A DNA stretch of 64,000 bases, from positions 28,114-92,113 of the forward strand of contig CAIXKE010000010.1 of assembly GCA_903919975.1 (NCBI GenBank), given 5' to 3'. The position numbers were made by a program, and so were the translations under genes. Positions 21,015 through 56,568 of the stretch are shown here, piece after piece (the stretch's first letter is position 1; each line of letters opens with the position of its first letter). Source of the stretch: Akkermansiaceae bacterium (GTDB lineage Bacteria; Verrucomicrobiota; Verrucomicrobiia; Verrucomicrobiales; Akkermansiaceae). The notes beneath the pieces were generated by a model. It made no database searches. It was not told the origin of the DNA and saw nothing but the letters and a program-made list of their open reading frames with translations.

Positions 21015-21021
21015 ATAATTA

Positions 21022-21034
21022 GAAATTTGAGATT
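21022..21034 (-). repeat. Copy 1 of intercistronic core motif (sense AATCTCAAATTTC) in the gltB-gltD spacer
   Basis: Plus-strand GAAATTTGAGATT. A one-mismatch second copy, GAAATTTGTGATT, lies at 21036-21048. Confidence 0.9.
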
Positions 21035-21060
21035 AGAAATTTGTGATTTGAAATGATCGA

Positions 21061-26264: not shown

Positions 26265-27356
26265 ATGCCATCCCCTGTATTGCGAAGCAAGTTCCCCCCA
26301 TTCCTTTTTTCAACAATTCACCGTTTATTCGACTCCGGAAATCCGGAGTTATCCGCCGCAGGTTGGTCGTTGCGCCGATGGTGCCTGATTGCCTTGGTGG
26401 TTCTCGGATTGCCGTTCGCGTTTGCGACATCGGCCATGGCCCAGAGTTCGCCAATCTTGACGTGGAATTCCAATCCGGAATCCGACATTGCCGGATACAT
26501 CGTCCATCTTGGAACGGCGAGTGGTAACTATTCGGTGGTGCAGGATGTTGGAATGCTGACGAGTTACACCTTTTCCGGGCTTTCATCCTCCACGGTTTAT
26601 TATTGTGCGGTTCAGGCTTATAACACTGCTGGAATGACCAGCGGTATTTCCTCTGAGCTCTCGTTTACGCCCCAATCGACCACCGTGGTTCCGTGGTCGT
26701 CTTCGCCAATTTTGTCATGGAGTTCCAACCCTGAATCCGACATTGCCGGCTACATCGTCCATCTTGGGACCGTGAGAGGCAACTATCCGGTGGTTCAGGA
26801 TGTTGGAAAAGTGATGAGTTACGTTTTTTCCGGGCTTTCATCCTCCACGGTTTATTATTGTGCGGTTCAAGCCTACAATGTGGCTGGATTGATGAGCGAT
26901 ATTTCCTCTGAAATCTCATTTTCGCCGCAATCGGCCGTTGCTGTTTTCAACACGTGGGCGTCTTCGAGCGGTTTGAGCGGGGCGACTGCGGCACCGTCAG
27001 CCATGCCATTTCAGGATGGGGTGAAGAATGTTTTGAAATATGCATTCAACATGAATGCTGGTGCTGCGGACACTCGAATCTTGAAGGCGGGAGTTGGCAC
27101 GGTCGGATTGCCGGTATTCAGCATGAATCAAAGCAAATCGCCGCCATCCTTCACGGTTGAGTTTATCAAGCGCAAAGGAAGTGGGCTGGTTTATAGTCCG
27201 AAGAGCTCCACCGATCTTAAGGTGTTCCAGTCGATGAATGAGACGCCGACGGTCACGAGTATCGATGCGACATGGGAGCGGGTTAAAATCGAGAGGCCCA
27301 TCAACAGCGTGACCACTCCGAAGCTCTTCGGCATCGTGGAGGTGACCCTGCCATAA
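26265..27356 (+). CDS. Secreted protein with two tandem fibronectin-type-III-like repeats and an uncharacterised C-terminal domain
   Basis: Signal/TM segment. Two 85-aa repeats (SSPIL.W.SNPESDIAGYIVHLGT..GNY.VVQDVG...SY.FSGLSSSTVYYCAVQAYN.AG) with an FN3-like pattern. The C-terminal roughly 140 aa are unassigned. Confidence 0.65.
   Translation: MPSPVLRSKFPPFLFSTIHRLFDSGNPELSAAGWSLRRWCLIALVVLGLPFAFATSAMAQSSPILTWNSNPESDIAGYIVHLGTASGNYSVVQDVGMLTSYTFSGLSSSTVYYCAVQAYNTAGMTSGISSELSFTPQSTTVVPWSSSPILSWSSNPESDIAGYIVHLGTVRGNYPVVQDVGKVMSYVFSGLSSSTVYYCAVQAYNVAGLMSDISSEISFSPQSAVAVFNTWASSSGLSGATAAPSAMPFQDGVKNVLKYAFNMNAGAADTRILKAGVGTVGLPVFSMNQSKSPPSFTVEFIKRKGSGLVYSPKSSTDLKVFQSMNETPTVTSIDATWERVKIERPINSVTTPKLFGIVEVTLP
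26445..26954 (+). repeat. Tandem 255-bp coding duplication (2 copies, roughly 85% identical by eye)
   Basis: AGTTCGCCAATCTTGACGTGG at 26445 versus TCTTCGCCAATTTTGTCATGG at 26700. Includes an identical stretch, TTTTCCGGGCTTTCATCCTCCACGGTTTATTATTGTGCGGTTCA. Confidence 0.9.
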
Positions 27357-31961: not shown

Positions 31962-32678
31962 ATGAGTACCAAATCGAAGAAAAAAGCCCAAACGGGAGTT
32001 CGTTATAGCAACGAAGAAAAACAGAAGGTCGTTGATTTTGTCAGCGAATATAACTCCTCAAAAGGACGTGGCGGACAAAGCGTAGCTGCTAAGAAATTCA
32101 AAGTCACACCTCTCACGATCGCTACATGGATCAAGAGTTTGGGTAAGAAGGCCGCAACACCTGCGAAGGCTCTTAAGCCTGTGAAAGCCGCCAAGGCAGC
32201 GAAGCCTGCGAAAGCCGCAAAGCCTGCAAAAGCCGCAAAAGCCGCAAAAGCCGCAAAAGCCGCAAAGCCTGCGAAGTCAGCTGGTGCGAGCAAGATGGGC
32301 GTGCGTTATAGCCCCGAGCAAAAGCAAGAAGTTGTGAAATTCGTTCAGGATTTCAACGCTGCCAATGGTCGCGGTGGCCAAAGCCGTGCCGCTGATAAGT
32401 TCAAACTTTCCGTTCTCACTGTTTCCGCATGGCTCAAGGCCGCAGGCGTGAAGGGTGGCAAGGTTGCCAAGGCTCCGAAGGCAGCCAAGGTTAGCAAGAA
32501 GGCCGCTAAGGGCGCTGTGGTGAAGGCTGCAAAGTCCTCCGCCGCACCAACCGGTCTCGCCGCCAAGGTGGCTTCTCTGGTTAATATCAGCGAGCAAGTC
32601 AACCAAGCTGAGAAGGAACTCGAAAAGCTTTATGCCAAGCACGATGCCATCATGGCTTCGATCAAGAGCTTGGTCTGA
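31962..32678 (+). CDS. Lys/Ala-rich histone-H1-like protein with duplicated transposase-OrfA-type HTH module and C-terminal coiled coil
   Basis: Two homologous modules: GVRYSNEEKQKVVDFVSEYNSSKGRGGQSVAAKKFKVTPLTIATWIK and GVRYSPEQKQEVVKFVQDFNAANGRGGQSRAADKFKLSVLTVSAWLK. They are separated and followed by AKPAKAAK-type repeats. The end, QAEKELEKLYAKHDAIMASIKSL, is coiled-coil-like. Confidence 0.6.
   Translation: MSTKSKKKAQTGVRYSNEEKQKVVDFVSEYNSSKGRGGQSVAAKKFKVTPLTIATWIKSLGKKAATPAKALKPVKAAKAAKPAKAAKPAKAAKAAKAAKAAKPAKSAGASKMGVRYSPEQKQEVVKFVQDFNAANGRGGQSRAADKFKLSVLTVSAWLKAAGVKGGKVAKAPKAAKVSKKAAKGAVVKAAKSSAAPTGLAAKVASLVNISEQVNQAEKELEKLYAKHDAIMASIKSLV
32232..32267 (+). repeat. Perfect 9-nt tandem repeat GCCGCAAA(A/G) x4 inside the Lys/Ala region
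   Basis: Read directly from the sequence. Embedded in a longer AAG-CCT/GCC-GCA low-complexity stretch from about 32175 to 32276. Confidence 0.9.
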
Positions 32679-33234: not shown

Positions 33235-33243
33235 CTTAGATTT

Positions 33244-33256
33244 GAAATTTGAGATT
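33244..33256 (-). repeat. Copy 2 of intercistronic core motif (sense AATCTCAAATTTC) in the gcvP-NUDIX spacer
   Basis: Plus-strand GAAATTTGAGATT. The last T is part of the gcvP stop codon. The whole 21-nt spacer is motif sequence. Confidence 0.9.
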
Positions 33257-40150: not shown

Positions 40151-40321
40151 GGTGGGAAGGGGTCGGAAAGTCAGAAGGTCAAAAGTCGAAGGTCTGAAGA
40201 TTAGAGGCTTCTTTTTTGAGTAGTTATTGGTTCATGAAAGAATTTAACCACTGATTGCACTGATTTACTGATTGGGTTTCTGGTTTAAAATCTTCTTCTG
40301 TGAAATCTGTGTAATCTGTGG
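40151..40321 (-). repeat. 171-nt mutA-mutB intercistronic spacer composed of three blocks of degenerate 7-9-nt tandem repeats
   Basis: Plus-strand blocks: GGTCGGAAAGTCAGAAGGTCAAAAGTCGAAGGTCTGAAG (40161-40198), CACTGATTGCACTGATTTACTGATT (40249-40272) and CTGTGAAATCTGTGTAATCTGTGGTT (40298-40323). Confidence 0.85.
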
Positions 40322-42376: not shown

Positions 42377-42389
42377 GAAATTTGAGATT
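42377..42389 (-). repeat. Copy 3 of intercistronic core motif (sense AATCTCAAATTTC) in the CoA-transferase-mutA spacer
   Basis: Plus-strand GAAATTTGAGATT. A hairpin, GTTGGC-GAGAT-GCCAAC, follows at 42402-42418. Confidence 0.9.
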
Positions 42390-42427
42390 TGGAAATCAGT
42401 GGTTGGCGAGATGCCAACGCTCCTTGA

Positions 42428-43915: not shown

Positions 43916-43943
43916 GATTGGAAATTGGATGCCGGGTGGGCCT

Positions 43944-52177: not shown

Positions 52178-53413
52178 TCAGAGAGCGGAGGGATCCTGCA
52201 GGAGTTCTGCAACCCGTTTGAGCAGCAGGCCGGCCCCACCGCCATCGACGACGCGGTGGTCGAATGTGAGGAAGACCTCCGCCACTGTTGCGGGTAGGAA
52301 GACCTCCGCTTGGGCGCTCCAGATGGGTTTTTTTACTCCCGCGCCGATGCCGAGAATGAGTGTTTCATTTGGCAGCGGGATGGGTGTGCCAAGGGTGAGT
52401 CCGAAGGTGCCGAAGTTCGTGACCGTGGCAATTCCGCCGCGGCAATCGTTTTCGGAAAGCCGGCGGCGGCGCGCGCGGTCCACGAGATCATCGTATTCGG
52501 CGATGAGTTCGCGCAGGGGTTTTTGATCCACCTTGCGAACCACGGGGACGACCACGCCGTCTTCGACTTGCACGGCCACGCCGATATCGAAGGCCCGCGG
52601 GTGGACCACTTTGTCGCCGATCAGGTATCCGGCGGTGGCTGGGTTTTCGGTGAGCGCCAGCGCGAAGGCGCGCAGCATGTAGAGAGTGAGGCCGGGTTTC
52701 GGTTCGTGCGTGCGGCGATGATCGAGCACACGATCTAACGAAGTTGGCAGTCCTACGGTAGCCAGAGGACGGGTCCAACTGCGGCGCATGGCGTCGGCTA
52801 CGGCGAGGCGCATGGGTGATGCCTGGGTGCTTGGCCAGGCTTCCAGATAATCGAGGAAACGCTCGAGGTCCTCAACGGTTACGCGGCCGCCCGCGCCGGT
52901 TCCGGCGACGGCGGAGATGTCCGCCTCACGCAGGCCTAGATCATCCATGCGGGCGCGCATGCGCGGCGAGATGTAGTGGGCACCCATGGTGCCGGCGGGC
53001 ACAGGTAAGCCTTTCACGCTGGGCACCACGGCGGGGGCTTCCTCGTAGGCATCGGCATCGTCGATGGCGAAATGGAGGTTTGCTTCGGCTTGGGCGGGGC
53101 TGGTGGAGGCGTCGCTGCGTTTGGCTTCGAGTGATTCAAGGGTATCCACGCCGGTGCGGGCGACTTCCTCCGCGGCAACTTCTAACAAACCAAGCAGGCT
53201 GCCGACCGAGTAGGAGATGCCTTCTTGGGCTTTAATTTCGGAAACGATGCCATTGCAGAGCGTGGTGACACCCATGACCGCCTTGTTCGTTTCCACCTCG
53301 ATGATTTCCTGATCGGTGCGGACCGCATCGCCTACAGCGATGCCGAGGCGAATGACGGTTGCCTCGGCGATCGATTCGCCGAGTTGCGGCATGAGAATGG
53401 GGACGGTGGGCAT
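52178..53413 (-). CDS. 2-oxoacid dehydrogenase E2 (dihydrolipoyl acyltransferase)
   Basis: Lipoyl domain (IIEVETNKAVMGV), a peripheral subunit-binding domain (ISPRMRARMDDLGL) and the catalytic C-terminus DHRVVDGG. Confidence 0.9.
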   Translation of the reverse strand: MPTVPILMPQLGESIAEATVIRLGIAVGDAVRTDQEIIEVETNKAVMGVTTLCNGIVSEIKAQEGISYSVGSLLGLLEVAAEEVARTGVDTLESLEAKRSDASTSPAQAEANLHFAIDDADAYEEAPAVVPSVKGLPVPAGTMGAHYISPRMRARMDDLGLREADISAVAGTGAGGRVTVEDLERFLDYLEAWPSTQASPMRLAVADAMRRSWTRPLATVGLPTSLDRVLDHRRTHEPKPGLTLYMLRAFALALTENPATAGYLIGDKVVHPRAFDIGVAVQVEDGVVVPVVRKVDQKPLRELIAEYDDLVDRARRRRLSENDCRGGIATVTNFGTFGLTLGTPIPLPNETLILGIGAGVKKPIWSAQAEVFLPATVAEVFLTFDHRVVDGGGAGLLLKRVAELLQDPSAL

Positions 53414-53540
53414 TTTGGTAAAAGCTGAGATGCTGAAAAGCTGAGAAGCTGAAACTTAGGAGGTAAAAGCTGAGAAACTGAAAAGCTGAGAAGCTAAAAT
53501 TTGGAAGAAAGAGAGATTTGAAATTTGAGATTTGAAATCT
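53414..53540 (-). repeat. 127-nt E1beta-E2 spacer: two 38-nt direct repeats of AAGCTGAG-type octamers plus copy 4 of the core motif
   Basis: Direct repeats at 53417-53454 and 53462-53499 (35/38 identical). GAAATTTGAGATT at 53520-53532 within GAGATTTGAAATTTGAGATTTGAAATC. Confidence 0.9.
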
Positions 53541-54506
53541 TCAGAATGTTAGGAGTTTGCGGAGGGCTTCGCAGATGGACTCGGGGGTTGGGCGGTGGGC
53601 GGCCCAGAGTTTCGGGTGATAGGGGACTGGGGTGTCGCGGGCGTTGAGGCGTTGCGGCGGCGCATCGAGGAGATGAAAGCCTTCTGCGGCGACGCGTGAA
53701 ACCACTTCTGCGGTGACGCCGCCCCATGGGAATGCTTCGCCGAGGGCGAGCAGGCGGCCGGTGCGGGCGACGGAAGCGAGCACGGTATCGATGTCGAGGG
53801 GTTTCACCGAGCGGAGATCGACCACCTCGATTTCCCAGCCGTCTTGTTGGAGTCGGTCTGCGGCGCGAACGGCTTCATGAACCATGGCGCTGTAGGCGAC
53901 GACGGTGGCGTGTTTGCCGGAGCGGACGATGCGGGCTTGGCCGATGGGCAGGTGATCATCGTTGATCGATTTTGATTTCAGCCAGCGATAGAGAAACTTG
54001 TGTTCGCAGAAGATGACCGGATCATCGAGCGCGACGGCGTCGATGAGCATGTGATAGGCGTCTGAAACCGATGCGGGTGTTAGAACGACGAGACCGGGGT
54101 ATTGGGCATAGATGCCTTCCATGCTTTGGCTATGGAACGGGCCTGAGCCGGGAGTGCCGCCGGAGGGCAGGCGAATCGTGATCGGGATCGGCACGCCGGT
54201 CCGATAGAAGTGGGTGGCGGCTTGATTGACGATCTGGTTGAATGCGATTGATGAAAAATCCGCGAACTGCATTTCCACGATCGGGCGCATGCCTTCGATG
54301 GCGGCGCCGACGGCGAGTCCGATCATCGCGTCTTCGGAGATCGGGCAATCGAACACGCGGTTAGGGAATTTTTCCGCGAGGCCCTTGGTGGCTTTGAAGG
54401 CACCGCCGAAGGTGGCGATGTCTTGGCCGTAGAGGAACACGCGCGGGTCTTCGCGCAGGAGGGTTTCCTGTGCTTCGCGGATGGCATCGATATAAGTCAC
54501 GCTCAC
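53541..54506 (-). CDS. 2-oxoacid dehydrogenase E1 beta subunit
   Basis: Transketolase-like pyrimidine-binding and C-terminal domains. GQDI..FGGAFK.T.GL, D.PI.E and IEVVDLRS.KPLD. Confidence 0.9.
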   Translation of the reverse strand: MSVTYIDAIREAQETLLREDPRVFLYGQDIATFGGAFKATKGLAEKFPNRVFDCPISEDAMIGLAVGAAIEGMRPIVEMQFADFSSIAFNQIVNQAATHFYRTGVPIPITIRLPSGGTPGSGPFHSQSMEGIYAQYPGLVVLTPASVSDAYHMLIDAVALDDPVIFCEHKFLYRWLKSKSINDDHLPIGQARIVRSGKHATVVAYSAMVHEAVRAADRLQQDGWEIEVVDLRSVKPLDIDTVLASVARTGRLLALGEAFPWGGVTAEVVSRVAAEGFHLLDAPPQRLNARDTPVPYHPKLWAAHRPTPESICEALRKLLTF

Positions 54507-55558
54507 GGGAAAACGGGCTGGGCGGTGGGTTGGCTGGCGGTCAGGGGGAAGCGCGTGGCGAGGGCGGTCCAGTCCTCATGATAGGGATCGGGCGGGGCCT
54601 CCTGTTGGGCTTGGGCGACGGCGCGCTGGACTTCGTCGGAAAACTCGTTTTCCCAGGAGGAAATTTCGTCGGCGGTGGCGTGGCCGTTTTCCAGCAACTG
54701 CCGGATGGCGACCTCGATGCAATCCCGTCCGTAGTGGTCCTTGCGGATTTCATCGGGCACGTAGGATCCGTCATCATGTTCGCCGTGGCCGGAGAGGCGC
54801 AACAAGCGGGCGACGACCATTTGCGGTCCTTGTCCGGCGCGGGCGCGGCGCACGGCTTCGCCGATGACCGAGACGCAGGCTAACAAATCCGTGCCATCCA
54901 CGGAAAATCCGCCGATGCCATAGCCGCGGGCTTTTTCGACGAGATCCGCGCAAACGAATTGCCGTGAATTCGGGGTCGAGTAAGCGAACTGGTTGTTGCC
55001 GATGACGATCACGAGCGGCAATTTTTCGACGGCGGCGAGGTTGAGTCCTTCGTGGAAAGCGCCGGTCGAGGATGCGCCATCGCCGATGCAGGTGGCACCC
55101 ACGCGGCCTTCGAGCGTGCCTTGCAAGCGTTTGGCAAACAGCATGCCCGCGACGACTGGGACTTGCGCGCCGAGGTGGGAAATCATTGCCGGCATGCCCA
55201 TTTCCGGGCGTCCGCGGTGGATATTGCCATCGCGTCCGCGCATCGGGCCTTGGGCGGAGCCGAGGTAGGTGCGGGTGCAATCGAGCATCGATTCGCCAAA
55301 AGCCGTGCGGCCGGCTTGATCGCGAATCAGCGGGGCGAAGAAATCTTTTCCTTGGATGAGCGAGGTGCCGAGTGTGGCGCTGACCGCCTCCTGGCCGCGG
55401 CCGAGATAGACTCCGCCGACGATTTTGCCTGCCTTGTAGAGGCTGGAGAGCTTGTTTTCCAGAATCCTGGCACGGAGCATCGAATGGAAGACCGATCGCA
55501 GGAAATCGCGGTTCGTCACCACTCCATCGGTGTTGGTTGGCATGTCCAATTGGGGCAC
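54503..55558 (-). CDS. 2-oxoacid dehydrogenase E1 alpha subunit (TPP-binding)
   Basis: TPP motif GDGASSTGAFHEGLN.AA..KLP...VI.NN.FAYSTP. The start is GTG 55558 or ATG 55543. 4-nt overlap with the beta subunit gene. Confidence 0.9.
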   Translation of the reverse strand: MPQLDMPTNTDGVVTNRDFLRSVFHSMLRARILENKLSSLYKAGKIVGGVYLGRGQEAVSATLGTSLIQGKDFFAPLIRDQAGRTAFGESMLDCTRTYLGSAQGPMRGRDGNIHRGRPEMGMPAMISHLGAQVPVVAGMLFAKRLQGTLEGRVGATCIGDGASSTGAFHEGLNLAAVEKLPLVIVIGNNQFAYSTPNSRQFVCADLVEKARGYGIGGFSVDGTDLLACVSVIGEAVRRARAGQGPQMVVARLLRLSGHGEHDDGSYVPDEIRKDHYGRDCIEVAIRQLLENGHATADEISSWENEFSDEVQRAVAQAQQEAPPDPYHEDWTALATRFPLTASQPTAQPVFP

Positions 55559-56384: not shown

Positions 56385-56568
56385 GGCGGGAGGATGGATT
56401 GCGGAAGCGGGCGAGCCAAGCGGAATGGTGGGACTCAAGGCGTGTTGGCGTCTCGCCAACAGTCATCGCTAGACGAGAATTGTGGGCGAGATGCCCAGAC
56501 TCCTTGATTTTACGCGTGACCCGCCGTTATGGGAAAGGCATTTTCGCCGCACCAATCAATACGACCCC

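Follow-up and report, generated by a model that had tools for sequence, protein, structure and literature searches.

Anatomy of the spacer and its siblings

The stretch of DNA analysed here, hereafter the window, is 64,000 nt long, and the element in question is the spacer that separates the E1 beta gene from the gene for E2 dihydrolipoamide acyltransferase, both of which are read from the minus strand. The window shows 83-85% nucleotide identity to metagenome-assembled genomes (MAGs) of Luteolibacter and thus comes from a Luteolibacter-like verrucomicrobium. An earlier note, made from the sequence alone, had described the spacer as a G-poor, repeat-built gap of 127 nt carrying a 13-mer shared with other operon spacers, and this description was confirmed: 10 of the 127 nt are G (7.9%, against 24.5% on the sense strand of the confident genes), and tandem repeats make up the gap. 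The genes and repeats of the locus are as follows (TRF, Tandem Repeats Finder; SD, Shine-Dalgarno).

54503-55558: E1 alpha gene (PF00676)
53541..54506, minus strand: E1 beta gene, the upstream cistron (PF02779/PF02780), overlapping the E1 alpha gene by 4 nt
53414-53540, between minus-strand genes: E1 beta-E2 spacer, 127 nt, G = 10
53513..53540, minus strand: heptamer array AGATT-TCAAATC-TCAAATT-TCAAATC-TC; TRF period 7, 3.3 copies; 14-nt repeat 53513-53524/53527-53538
53462..53506, minus strand: distal copy of a 45-nt duplication (87% identity, spacing 45), with four TCAGCTTY-type octamers and a TACC..AAG tail
53417..53461, minus strand: proximal copy of the duplication, with four TCAGCTTY-like octamers, ending 3 nt from the E2 ATG (53413-53411)
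52178..53413, minus strand: E2 dihydrolipoamide acyltransferase gene, the downstream cistron (PF00364, PF02817, PF00198), without an SD motif

The heptamer array begins at the base directly after the E1 beta stop codon and includes the 13-mer at 53520-53532. The octamer block, for which TRF gave a period of 8/16, is a second repeat of the same kind. The two 38-nt direct repeats reported earlier are real and are better described as the head-to-tail 45-nt duplication, and six of the eight octamers that had been assigned to the TCAGYTTY type are strict fits, the other two being one-off variants. The spacer contains no ATG, GTG or TTG (P about 0.02), and all ten of its G's are preceded by A. This absence of NTG belongs to the E1 beta-E2 spacer itself; a general depletion of NTG start codons in upstream regions was not significant beyond composition.

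The plus-strand 13-mer GAAATTTGAGATT occurs exactly four times in the window, at 21022, 33244, 42377 and 53520, each time on the plus strand, and it appeared in none of 100 dinucleotide-preserving shuffles. Pfam gene assignments place every copy between two co-directional minus-strand genes: gltB and gltD (glutamate synthase large and small subunits), gcvP (glycine dehydrogenase) and a NUDIX gene, a CoA-transferase gene (acetyl-CoA hydrolase/transferase family) and the small-subunit gene of methylmalonyl-CoA mutase (MCM), and E1 beta and E2. Both the uniform orientation between co-directional genes and the recurrence beyond chance had been claimed before, and both are borne out. What does not stand is the status of the 13-mer as a discrete shared element. 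It is the junction between the units of a tandem heptanucleotide array that reads (TCAAATY)n on the sense strand, with TCAAATC and TCAAATT as its units and 2-5 of them at each site, and it exceeds chance because it is such a junction. A fifth array site, at 43916-43929, was absent from the earlier list. The sibling sites in the window are the following.

21017..21051, minus strand: five-unit array TCAAATC ACAAATT TCTAATC TCAAATT TCTAATT in the 46-nt gltB-gltD spacer; TRF period 14, 2.6 copies
33239..33256, minus strand: array ATCTCAAATTTCAAATC (ATC-TCAAATT-TCAAATC) in the 21-nt gcvP-NUDIX spacer
42377..42392, minus strand: array CCAAATC-TCAAATT-TC in the 60-nt spacer between the CoA-transferase and MCM small-subunit genes, ending about 9 nt from the ATG
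43916..43929, minus strand: degenerate two-unit array TCCAATTTCCAATC (TCCAATT-TCCAATC), abutting the CoA-transferase ATG in the 28-nt spacer after OAD beta
40151..40321, minus strand: 171-nt spacer between the MCM small- and large-subunit genes, with CACAGATTW 9-mers, AATCAGTNN 9-mers and CTTCNGAC-type 8-mers, extending to the ATG

The gltB-gltD array ends 2 nt from the gltD ATG, and the gcvP-NUDIX array shares bases with the gcvP stop codon and stops 4 nt short of the NUDIX-gene ATG. At four window sites the array thus ends 0-9 nt before the ATG, and in the E1 beta-E2 spacer the octamer block ends 3 nt before it. A period of 7 or 14 was detected at 53513-53540 and 21017-21051; the other three sites hold only 2-2.5 units. 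Because the spacer between the two MCM genes is also built of 8- and 9-nt arrays, repeat-built spacers between cistrons are a habit of this genome. Units of the ACCTTCGACC type from this MCM spacer were also seen in the E1 beta-E2 spacer of one relative (L150).

The arrays stand in a genome whose genes start without SD motifs. Searching for GGAG, GAGG or AGGA at -20 to -4, we found none upstream of the 26 confident genes or of the E2, gltD, NUDIX and MCM genes, and G accounts for about 10% of positions -11 to -1. The coding strand is strongly G-poor and C-rich, with a plus-strand GC skew of +0.1 to +0.27 where genes lie on the minus strand. Some Verrucomicrobia (Akkermansia) have been classed as SD-scarce, along with Bacteroidota (PMC10783764). 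By folding, the start regions of highly scoring central-metabolism genes are almost structure-free. The E1 beta-E2 spacer with its flanks gave a minimum free energy of -14.2 kcal/mol over 187 nt (z = +0.21), and of 303 background windows of the same length and strand, every one folds more strongly than the 127-nt spacer. A comparison by eye with the textbook 16S 3' tail and 5' end gave no convincing complementarity; the window holds no 16S gene.

Several element classes were rejected for the spacer. A structured cis-regulatory RNA (riboswitch, leader or attenuator) disagrees with the z score and the weak fold, and no Rfam family reached its gathering score or passed by E-value, the best hit being a trypanosome snoRNA at E = 0.21. 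A repetitive extragenic palindromic element, miniature inverted-repeat transposable element or other palindromic dispersed repeat was dismissed on finding no inverted pairs in 53400-53560, and an internal promoter or intrinsic terminator on finding neither on the minus (sense) strand within 53414-53540. The sequence AAATTTC fits the X XXY YYZ slippery heptamer of a -1 frameshift signal, but it lies after stop codons.

Among the three roles proposed for the 13-mer in the earlier note, SD-independent translational (re)initiation fits best, given the absence of SD motifs from all 26 genes, the nearness of the arrays to ATG codons and the unstructured RNA. On balance, we think that the arrays are probably slippage-born repeats that have been kept as leaders for SD-independent initiation, with a presumed effect on translation. 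Replication slippage or local duplication would create them in the short stretches of untranslated sequence that separate cistrons, where they would expand, contract and turn over quickly, and those in sense orientation upstream of starts may persist because they serve initiation in a verrucomicrobium without SD motifs. Such an array would supply G-free RNA that is unable to fold and holds no AUG, GUG or UUG, and the A/U/C-rich track could act as a standby or re-initiation site. Ribosomal protein S1 or cold-shock proteins, which bind single strands through multiple oligonucleotide/oligosaccharide-binding (OB) folds, may attach to it with about one fold per heptamer. Initiation tuned by structure is described for SD-less Bacteroidetes (PMC6847099). 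The best reading is then of an array that is helpful but dispensable, not of a sequence-specific switch.

Turnover of the arrays among relatives

For comparison we used 70 metagenomic orthologues of the E1 beta-E2 junction with readable spacer boundaries, in which E2 identity ranged from 53 to 98%. Their spacers measure 4-210 nt and hold from 0 to about 10 units of differing sequence. In the closest relative (L126, 98% E2 identity), a 42-nt spacer consists solely of TCAAATY and TTAAATC heptamers, and the next two (L127 and L128, 93-94%) have only TTTCAGCA-type octamers. The spacer of the window has both a heptamer array and a duplicated octamer block, and the proximal 45-nt copy of this block is homologous to the entire 41-65 nt octamer spacer of L127 and L128 (the BLAST alignment reaches 53454). 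Elsewhere among the orthologous spacers the units are ATTTCAA/ATTTCAG, in arrays that reach about 10 units, or CTTCGAC-type, ATTTCGG or GTCATTC. Wherever an array is present in these spacers it is in sense orientation and usually abuts the ATG, and in long spacers, too, arrays are usually ATG-proximal (L163, L176, L177). Luteolibacter MAGs have a TCAAATY array at the same junctions as the window, namely gltB-gltD (L053), E1 beta-E2 (L096) and CoA-transferase-MCM (L101). The spacer was identical in all four same-strain assemblies (99.96-100% identity; n = 4), so that this small sample lends no support to phase variation.

Seven is by far the commonest period: 276 period-7 arrays were counted in 1.27 Mb of related loci, against 20, 28, 9, 16, 2 and 0 arrays of periods 5, 6, 8, 9, 10 and 11. 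Heptamer units unrelated to TCAAATY are frequent in the relatives, for example CGAACAT x17 and GTCATTC x13. Judged by this comparison of sequences, the array appears to be a fast-evolving and dispensable microsatellite that is nonetheless constrained in its orientation.

The main rival explanation starts from this turnover. It takes the arrays for neutral, slippage-prone microsatellites that accumulate in non-coding DNA without benefit, and it differs from the initiation explanation only in the absence of a positive benefit; we give it a minority chance, though one of some substance. The free gain, loss and swapping of arrays among orthologous spacers, many of which have none, speaks for neutrality, as do the many unrelated heptamer units in the relatives and the general dominance of period 7, which is in line with the polymerase-slippage explanation of Mrazek as it is cited in PMC4679880. 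In addition, closeness to a start codon is unavoidable for any sequence within a short intercistronic gap. The sense bias would be explained either by purging of the antisense GATTTGA..., which brings G, TTG starts and TGA stops, or by a G-poor composition that the spacers share with the coding strand. Neutrality accounts less well for the ATG-proximal placement in the long spacers of L163, L176 and L177.

Two observations on the spacers of relatives may be added. In L198 (an E2 homologue of 56% identity; positions 60-85 and 262-360), a (GTCATTC)x13 array runs into the E2 ATG, and an array of the reverse complement, GAATGAC, lies ~200 nt upstream. Five relatives (L153, L154, L163, L176 and L177) have in common an insertion of ~100 nt, ccgtttcccggcagcttc.ccgcaatgggtttgaccaa..gg.tg.tttggccttagaacg..., situated upstream of the heptamer arrays and ~100-200 nt before the E2 ATG. 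No Rfam family reached its gathering score for this insertion, which could be a promoter or an undescribed RNA.

Arrays across phyla and in viral contigs

We scanned the representative genomes of GTDB for the 18-mer AATCTCAAATTTCAAATC and obtained at least 120 stretches, where by a rough estimate ~17 matches would be expected in uniform random sequence of that size. Among the matches listed, the hosts are overwhelmingly Verrucomicrobiota, Planctomycetota, Acidobacteriota (especially Pyrinomonadaceae), Bacteroidota (especially Chitinophagaceae), Nitrospirota and Desulfobacterota, and Pseudomonadota, Bacillota and Actinomycetota are almost absent. The matches belong to heptamer arrays of greater length, which often adjoin arrays made of different units. 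In relatives, other phyla and phage contigs alike, the array is usually sense-oriented and followed by an ATG after 3-30 nt, and the stretch between array and ATG is generally without an SD motif, the exceptions being weakly SD-like (e.g. gggcgga in L039). The genes downstream are housekeeping genes, typically later cistrons of operons: atpD (ATP synthase beta), rplN (ribosomal protein L14), leuD, trpA, hisF, purE and murA.

Orientation was judged mainly by an ATG that opens an open reading frame (ORF) of at least 150 aa within 40 nt downstream, together with manual inspection, the two home-made gene callers being imperfect. By this test 32 sites were sense and 6 antisense among the 107 usable sites of the matches listed. 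The ratio of sense to antisense across phyla is approximate, being about 2:1 for all sites together and about 5:1 for those near an ATG. An orientation census filtered by GC content at third codon positions suffered from shadow ORFs where genomes are high in GC, and from ORFs that continue through the array because it has no stop codon.

Viral contigs gave a further comparison. In IMG/VR the 18-mer was present in 88 stretches, and two composition-matched scrambled arrays were present in 6 and 0. Because of this difference, particular heptamer units, TCAAATY included, must be specifically favoured; among other units compared, a TAACTGA array was found in at least 120 stretches and a TTCAAAC array in 27. 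In one family of viral contigs, with a GC content of about 0.62 and a G-poor coding strand, each contig has several genes whose ATG follows a sense (TSAAATY/TCCAATC)n array at a distance of 4-17 nt, among them a DnaB-like helicase gene (phrog_19) and the major head protein gene (phrog_1005). The best argument for a positive role, albeit an indirect one, is that compact phage genomes retain arrays before their most expressed gene.

Several observations weigh against the initiation explanation. Most SD-less genes of the window have G-poor leaders without arrays, and the heptamer array of the E1 beta-E2 spacer adjoins the stop codon, ~100 nt from the E2 ATG. Many orthologous E1 beta-E2 spacers are only 4-13 nt long and array-free, so E2 can be expressed without it. 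If unstructured RNA were all that is needed, the preference for TCAAATY over units of the same composition would go unexplained. A census by strand only counted 25 sense-operon, 12 convergent and 19 antisense-operon contexts, the last figure being raised by shadow ORFs. Of the copies outside Verrucomicrobia, a substantial minority are in antisense orientation upstream of a gene, for example ffh (L020) and recF (L076); others were found between genes that converge, in the loops of hairpins or apparently in frame within ORFs, and the viral contigs L206 and L266 carry the array antisense before SD-led genes. Since antisense, convergent and in-ORF copies exist, a mutational process blind to function must also be at work. 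The earlier note had named copies in both orientations and in non-operonic or coding DNA as the sign of a generic dispersed repeat; no such pattern was found in this genome, and outside the lineage it was found in part.

Neutral accumulation gains from the copies in convergent, antisense and in-ORF settings, but it does not readily explain why compact phage genomes keep arrays of 21-35 nt before several genes, including the major head protein gene, nor why the TCAAATY unit recurs in at least five phyla and, in the viral collection, at least 15-fold over composition-matched arrays.

The strong preference for TCAAATY over scrambled equivalents keeps another possibility alive, that of a sequence-specific site for a trans-acting RNA-binding protein or small RNA (sRNA) that would control a post-transcriptional regulon of central-metabolism operons. 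An exact 13-18-mer common to unrelated operons and across phyla would suit such a factor, and multivalent repeats suit repeat-binding proteins, CspB being a binder of heptamer repeats according to the review in PMC4679880. On the other hand, the orthologous E1 beta-E2 spacers swap their units or lack an array, which disfavours both a sequence-specific protein or sRNA site and an essential role, and it tells directly against the fixed 13-mer docking site suggested earlier. No functional theme unites the downstream genes (atpD, rplN, trpA, murA and those for a phage head protein and helicase), and no candidate factor was identified. Within the window no complementary sRNA locus was seen, the 4 exact 13-mers and 5 relaxed arrays all lying on one strand. 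We consider a trans-acting factor unlikely.

Enzymes of the RNase E/Y type generally prefer A/U-rich single-stranded RNA, and the arrays would yield RNA that is A/U-rich, single-stranded and G-free, situated precisely at the border of cistrons whose products the cell may require in unequal amounts. They might thus be entry or cleavage zones for an endoribonuclease of the RNase E/G/Y type, splitting a polycistronic mRNA into segments that differ in stability. We hold this to be very unlikely, for the arrays abut the start codon, so that internal cleavage would leave a very short leader or none; phage head-protein and ribosomal-protein genes carry them; and many precede first genes after divergent or unknown neighbours.

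Least probable of all, to the point of being hardly credible, is a role at the level of DNA, in which the array would be a promoter, an operator, a site for a nucleoid protein, or a segment that is curved or melts easily. Across the broad data set, arrays upstream of genes do have both orientations, and heptad repeats are reported as transcription-factor sites elsewhere, such as TTTTGAT in the ctxAB promoter and the heptamers of Streptomyces antibiotic regulatory proteins. Against it stand the location of the sites inside operons, directly past stop codons, the lack of a sense-strand sigma-70-like promoter in the E1 beta-E2 spacer, and the strong sense bias near ATG (32 versus 6 among the matches listed); moreover, a transcript initiated in the array would have a leader of at most 10 nt.

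A bolder form of the initiation explanation can be put forward tentatively, though we find it rather doubtful: (TSAAATY)n may be a genuine, widely shared enhancer of SD-independent initiation in Verrucomicrobiota, Planctomycetota, Acidobacteriota and Chitinophagaceae, copied by phages and read multivalently, one heptad per domain, by S1, a cold-shock protein or a protein with RNA recognition motifs.

Some arrays are found in unusual surroundings. In L113 (Haloferula), L118 (Opitutaceae) and L012 (Mucilaginibacter), a TCAAATY array apparently lies in frame in coding regions and yields a '..SQISNLK..' peptide; by eye we take these genes to be polA-like, dnaE-like and aminoacyl-tRNA-synthetase-like. 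The sense strand of the array has a stop codon in no frame, and in the viral contig L249 an upstream ORF of 85 aa reads through the array ('...LKSQISNLQFP'). Within the viral contigs L207-L293, a family with a GC content of ~0.6 (e.g. L216, L238, L249, L287) shares one leader of ~30 nt that hardly varies, CTCTGAAATCTCAAATTTCAAATCTCCAAT, in front of several different genes. In L034, L037, L006, L083 and L112 (Pyrinomonadaceae, Planctomycetaceae), long inverted arms enclose the TCAAATY array as their loop, and some of these arms are themselves heptamer arrays (CACAGAG... / ...CTCTGTG), a composite hairpin not seen in the window.

Kinship with known heptamer repeats

The spacer motif had been thought to fit no named element class. 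The array is in fact a heptanucleotide simple-sequence repeat of the type represented by long simple sequence repeats (LSSR), by the short tandemly repeated repetitive (STRR) sequences of cyanobacteria and by the TAACTGA repeats, and the TCAAATY arrays are a new example of this known class. The nearest parallel in position is the TAACTGA repeat of Beggiatoaceae, which lies upstream of start codons where ribosome-binding sites (RBSs) are rare and for which translational regulation by S1, Csp or CsrA has been proposed (PMC4679880). Both are tandem direct heptamers, with 2-6 copies per set for TAACTGA, that are intergenic, forward and a few nt before start codons; both occur where canonical RBSs are rare, precede housekeeping genes including ribosomal-protein operons and are spread patchily across phyla, and in both cases the function is a hypothesis. 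They differ in that TAACTGA contains G and TGA/TAA, whereas TCAAATY is G-free; in the hosts of TCAAATY, which are Verrucomicrobiota, Planctomycetota, Acidobacteriota, Chitinophagaceae and their phages; and in the rapid unit turnover and dispensability of TCAAATY arrays among orthologues. The intergenic, forward and start-proximal position without a canonical RBS is therefore found in TCAAATY arrays as well, but because their unit is TCAAATY they are an analogue and not a member of the TAACTGA family.

The STRR heptamer repeats of cyanobacteria were reportedly the subject of a 1990 paper by Mazel and colleagues. Classical STRR units contain G/C, CCCCAGT being one of several. Like the TCAAATY arrays, cyanobacterial heptamer repeats are intergenic tandem heptamers that occur near start codons in several unit families per genome, with a regulatory role under speculation. 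We rejected membership in the STRR class, since its units CCCCAGT, TTGGTCA and CAACAGT differ and the host is Luteolibacter-like, of another phylum, and not a heterocystous cyanobacterium. In Nostoc PCC 7120, (TTCAAAA)3 repeats are present near start codons and promoters, mainly in a promoter or transcription-factor context (bioRxiv 10.1101/2022.06.06.494920), and TTCAAAA is nearly the same unit as TTCAAAT.

LSSRs, as summarised from Mrazek et al. 2007 in PMC4679880, have units of 5-11 nt with heptanucleotides the most abundant and are attributed to polymerase slippage. They resemble the TCAAATY arrays in being intergenic, in their heptamer units and in their scattered phylogenetic distribution, and the arrays share with them head-to-tail 7-nt units and a turnover of copy number and unit between related genomes. 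In that summary the LSSR is a purely descriptive class with no rule of position or orientation, and the taxa highlighted are Burkholderia, Xanthomonas, cyanobacteria and actinobacteria, not the Planctomycetes-Verrucomicrobia-Chlamydiae (PVC) group, the Fibrobacteres-Chlorobi-Bacteroidetes (FCB) group or Acidobacteriota.

Two other systems invite comparison. In E. coli, A/U-rich S1-binding sequences and CA repeats act as translational enhancers. For Bacteroidetes, Baez et al. 2019 (PMC6847099) name low secondary structure and Kozak-like A-rich upstream positions as SD-independent determinants. The TCAAATY arrays share with these an SD-less host (in the case of Bacteroidetes), an A-rich, G-poor and unfolded leader and a plausible dependence on S1; they differ in being tandem repeats, the determinants described there being a positional base preference or generic A/U richness. 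The second system is that of the Haemophilus influenzae genes hmw1A and hmw2A, which have phase-variable 7-bp repeats in their 5' region (PMC8262952, PMC12721329). Here, too, a heptamer repeat lies in the promoter or 5' untranslated region, where the hmw copy number tunes expression of the downstream gene, but the hmw arrays are long and switch copy number within a strain of a host-adapted pathogen, unlike the TCAAATY arrays of 2-5 units that were identical in four same-strain assemblies. A literature search for literal TCAAAT-array strings returned only unrelated eukaryotic and viral primer matches; as no paper with these strings was found, the TCAAATY family and its distribution over PVC, FCB, Acidobacteriota and phages appear undescribed in the searchable literature.

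How ribosomes are loaded and choose a start in non-SD bacteria is only partly understood, the current answers being low structure and A-rich upstream positions. The window instance is an ordinary one, and it is the pattern of the family that gives a testable handle on SD-independent initiation: a defined, recurring repeat that precedes highly expressed later cistrons (ATP synthase beta, L14, phage head protein) in SD-poor or poorly studied phyla. If the repeat were an enhancer, its defined sequence could be transplanted to study how start codons are found by ribosomes that ignore SD motifs, and it would serve as a ready-made part for expression in PVC and FCB bacteria, which are difficult genetically. 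Should the arrays be neutral, they explain exact-word recurrences in intergenic DNA that would otherwise be flagged as novel motifs, and the intercistronic spacers of these genomes are still seen to be hypervariable microsatellites.

Further repeats were noted elsewhere in the window. Two minus-strand copies of ATCAAGGAG-NNT-GGGCATCTCGCC-AC, at 42399-42425 and 56479-56505, show a compensatory change in the stem (GTTGGC..GCCAAC versus TGGGC..GCCCA) around the same ATCTC loop. The former directly follows the CoA-transferase stop codon, upstream of the heptamer array, and the latter is part of the divergent region 56460-56568. The 11-mer core of this ATCAAGGAG-type element occurs twice in exact form in the window, and with one mismatch its frequency is not above chance. 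At 26447-26933, a 255-nt unit is repeated in tandem (1.9 copies, 84% matches, TRF score 715). At 32184-32269 on the plus strand, inside the ORF 31962-32678, a 9-nt array of about 10 copies of AAAGCCGC(A) probably encodes an Ala/Lys-rich repeat.

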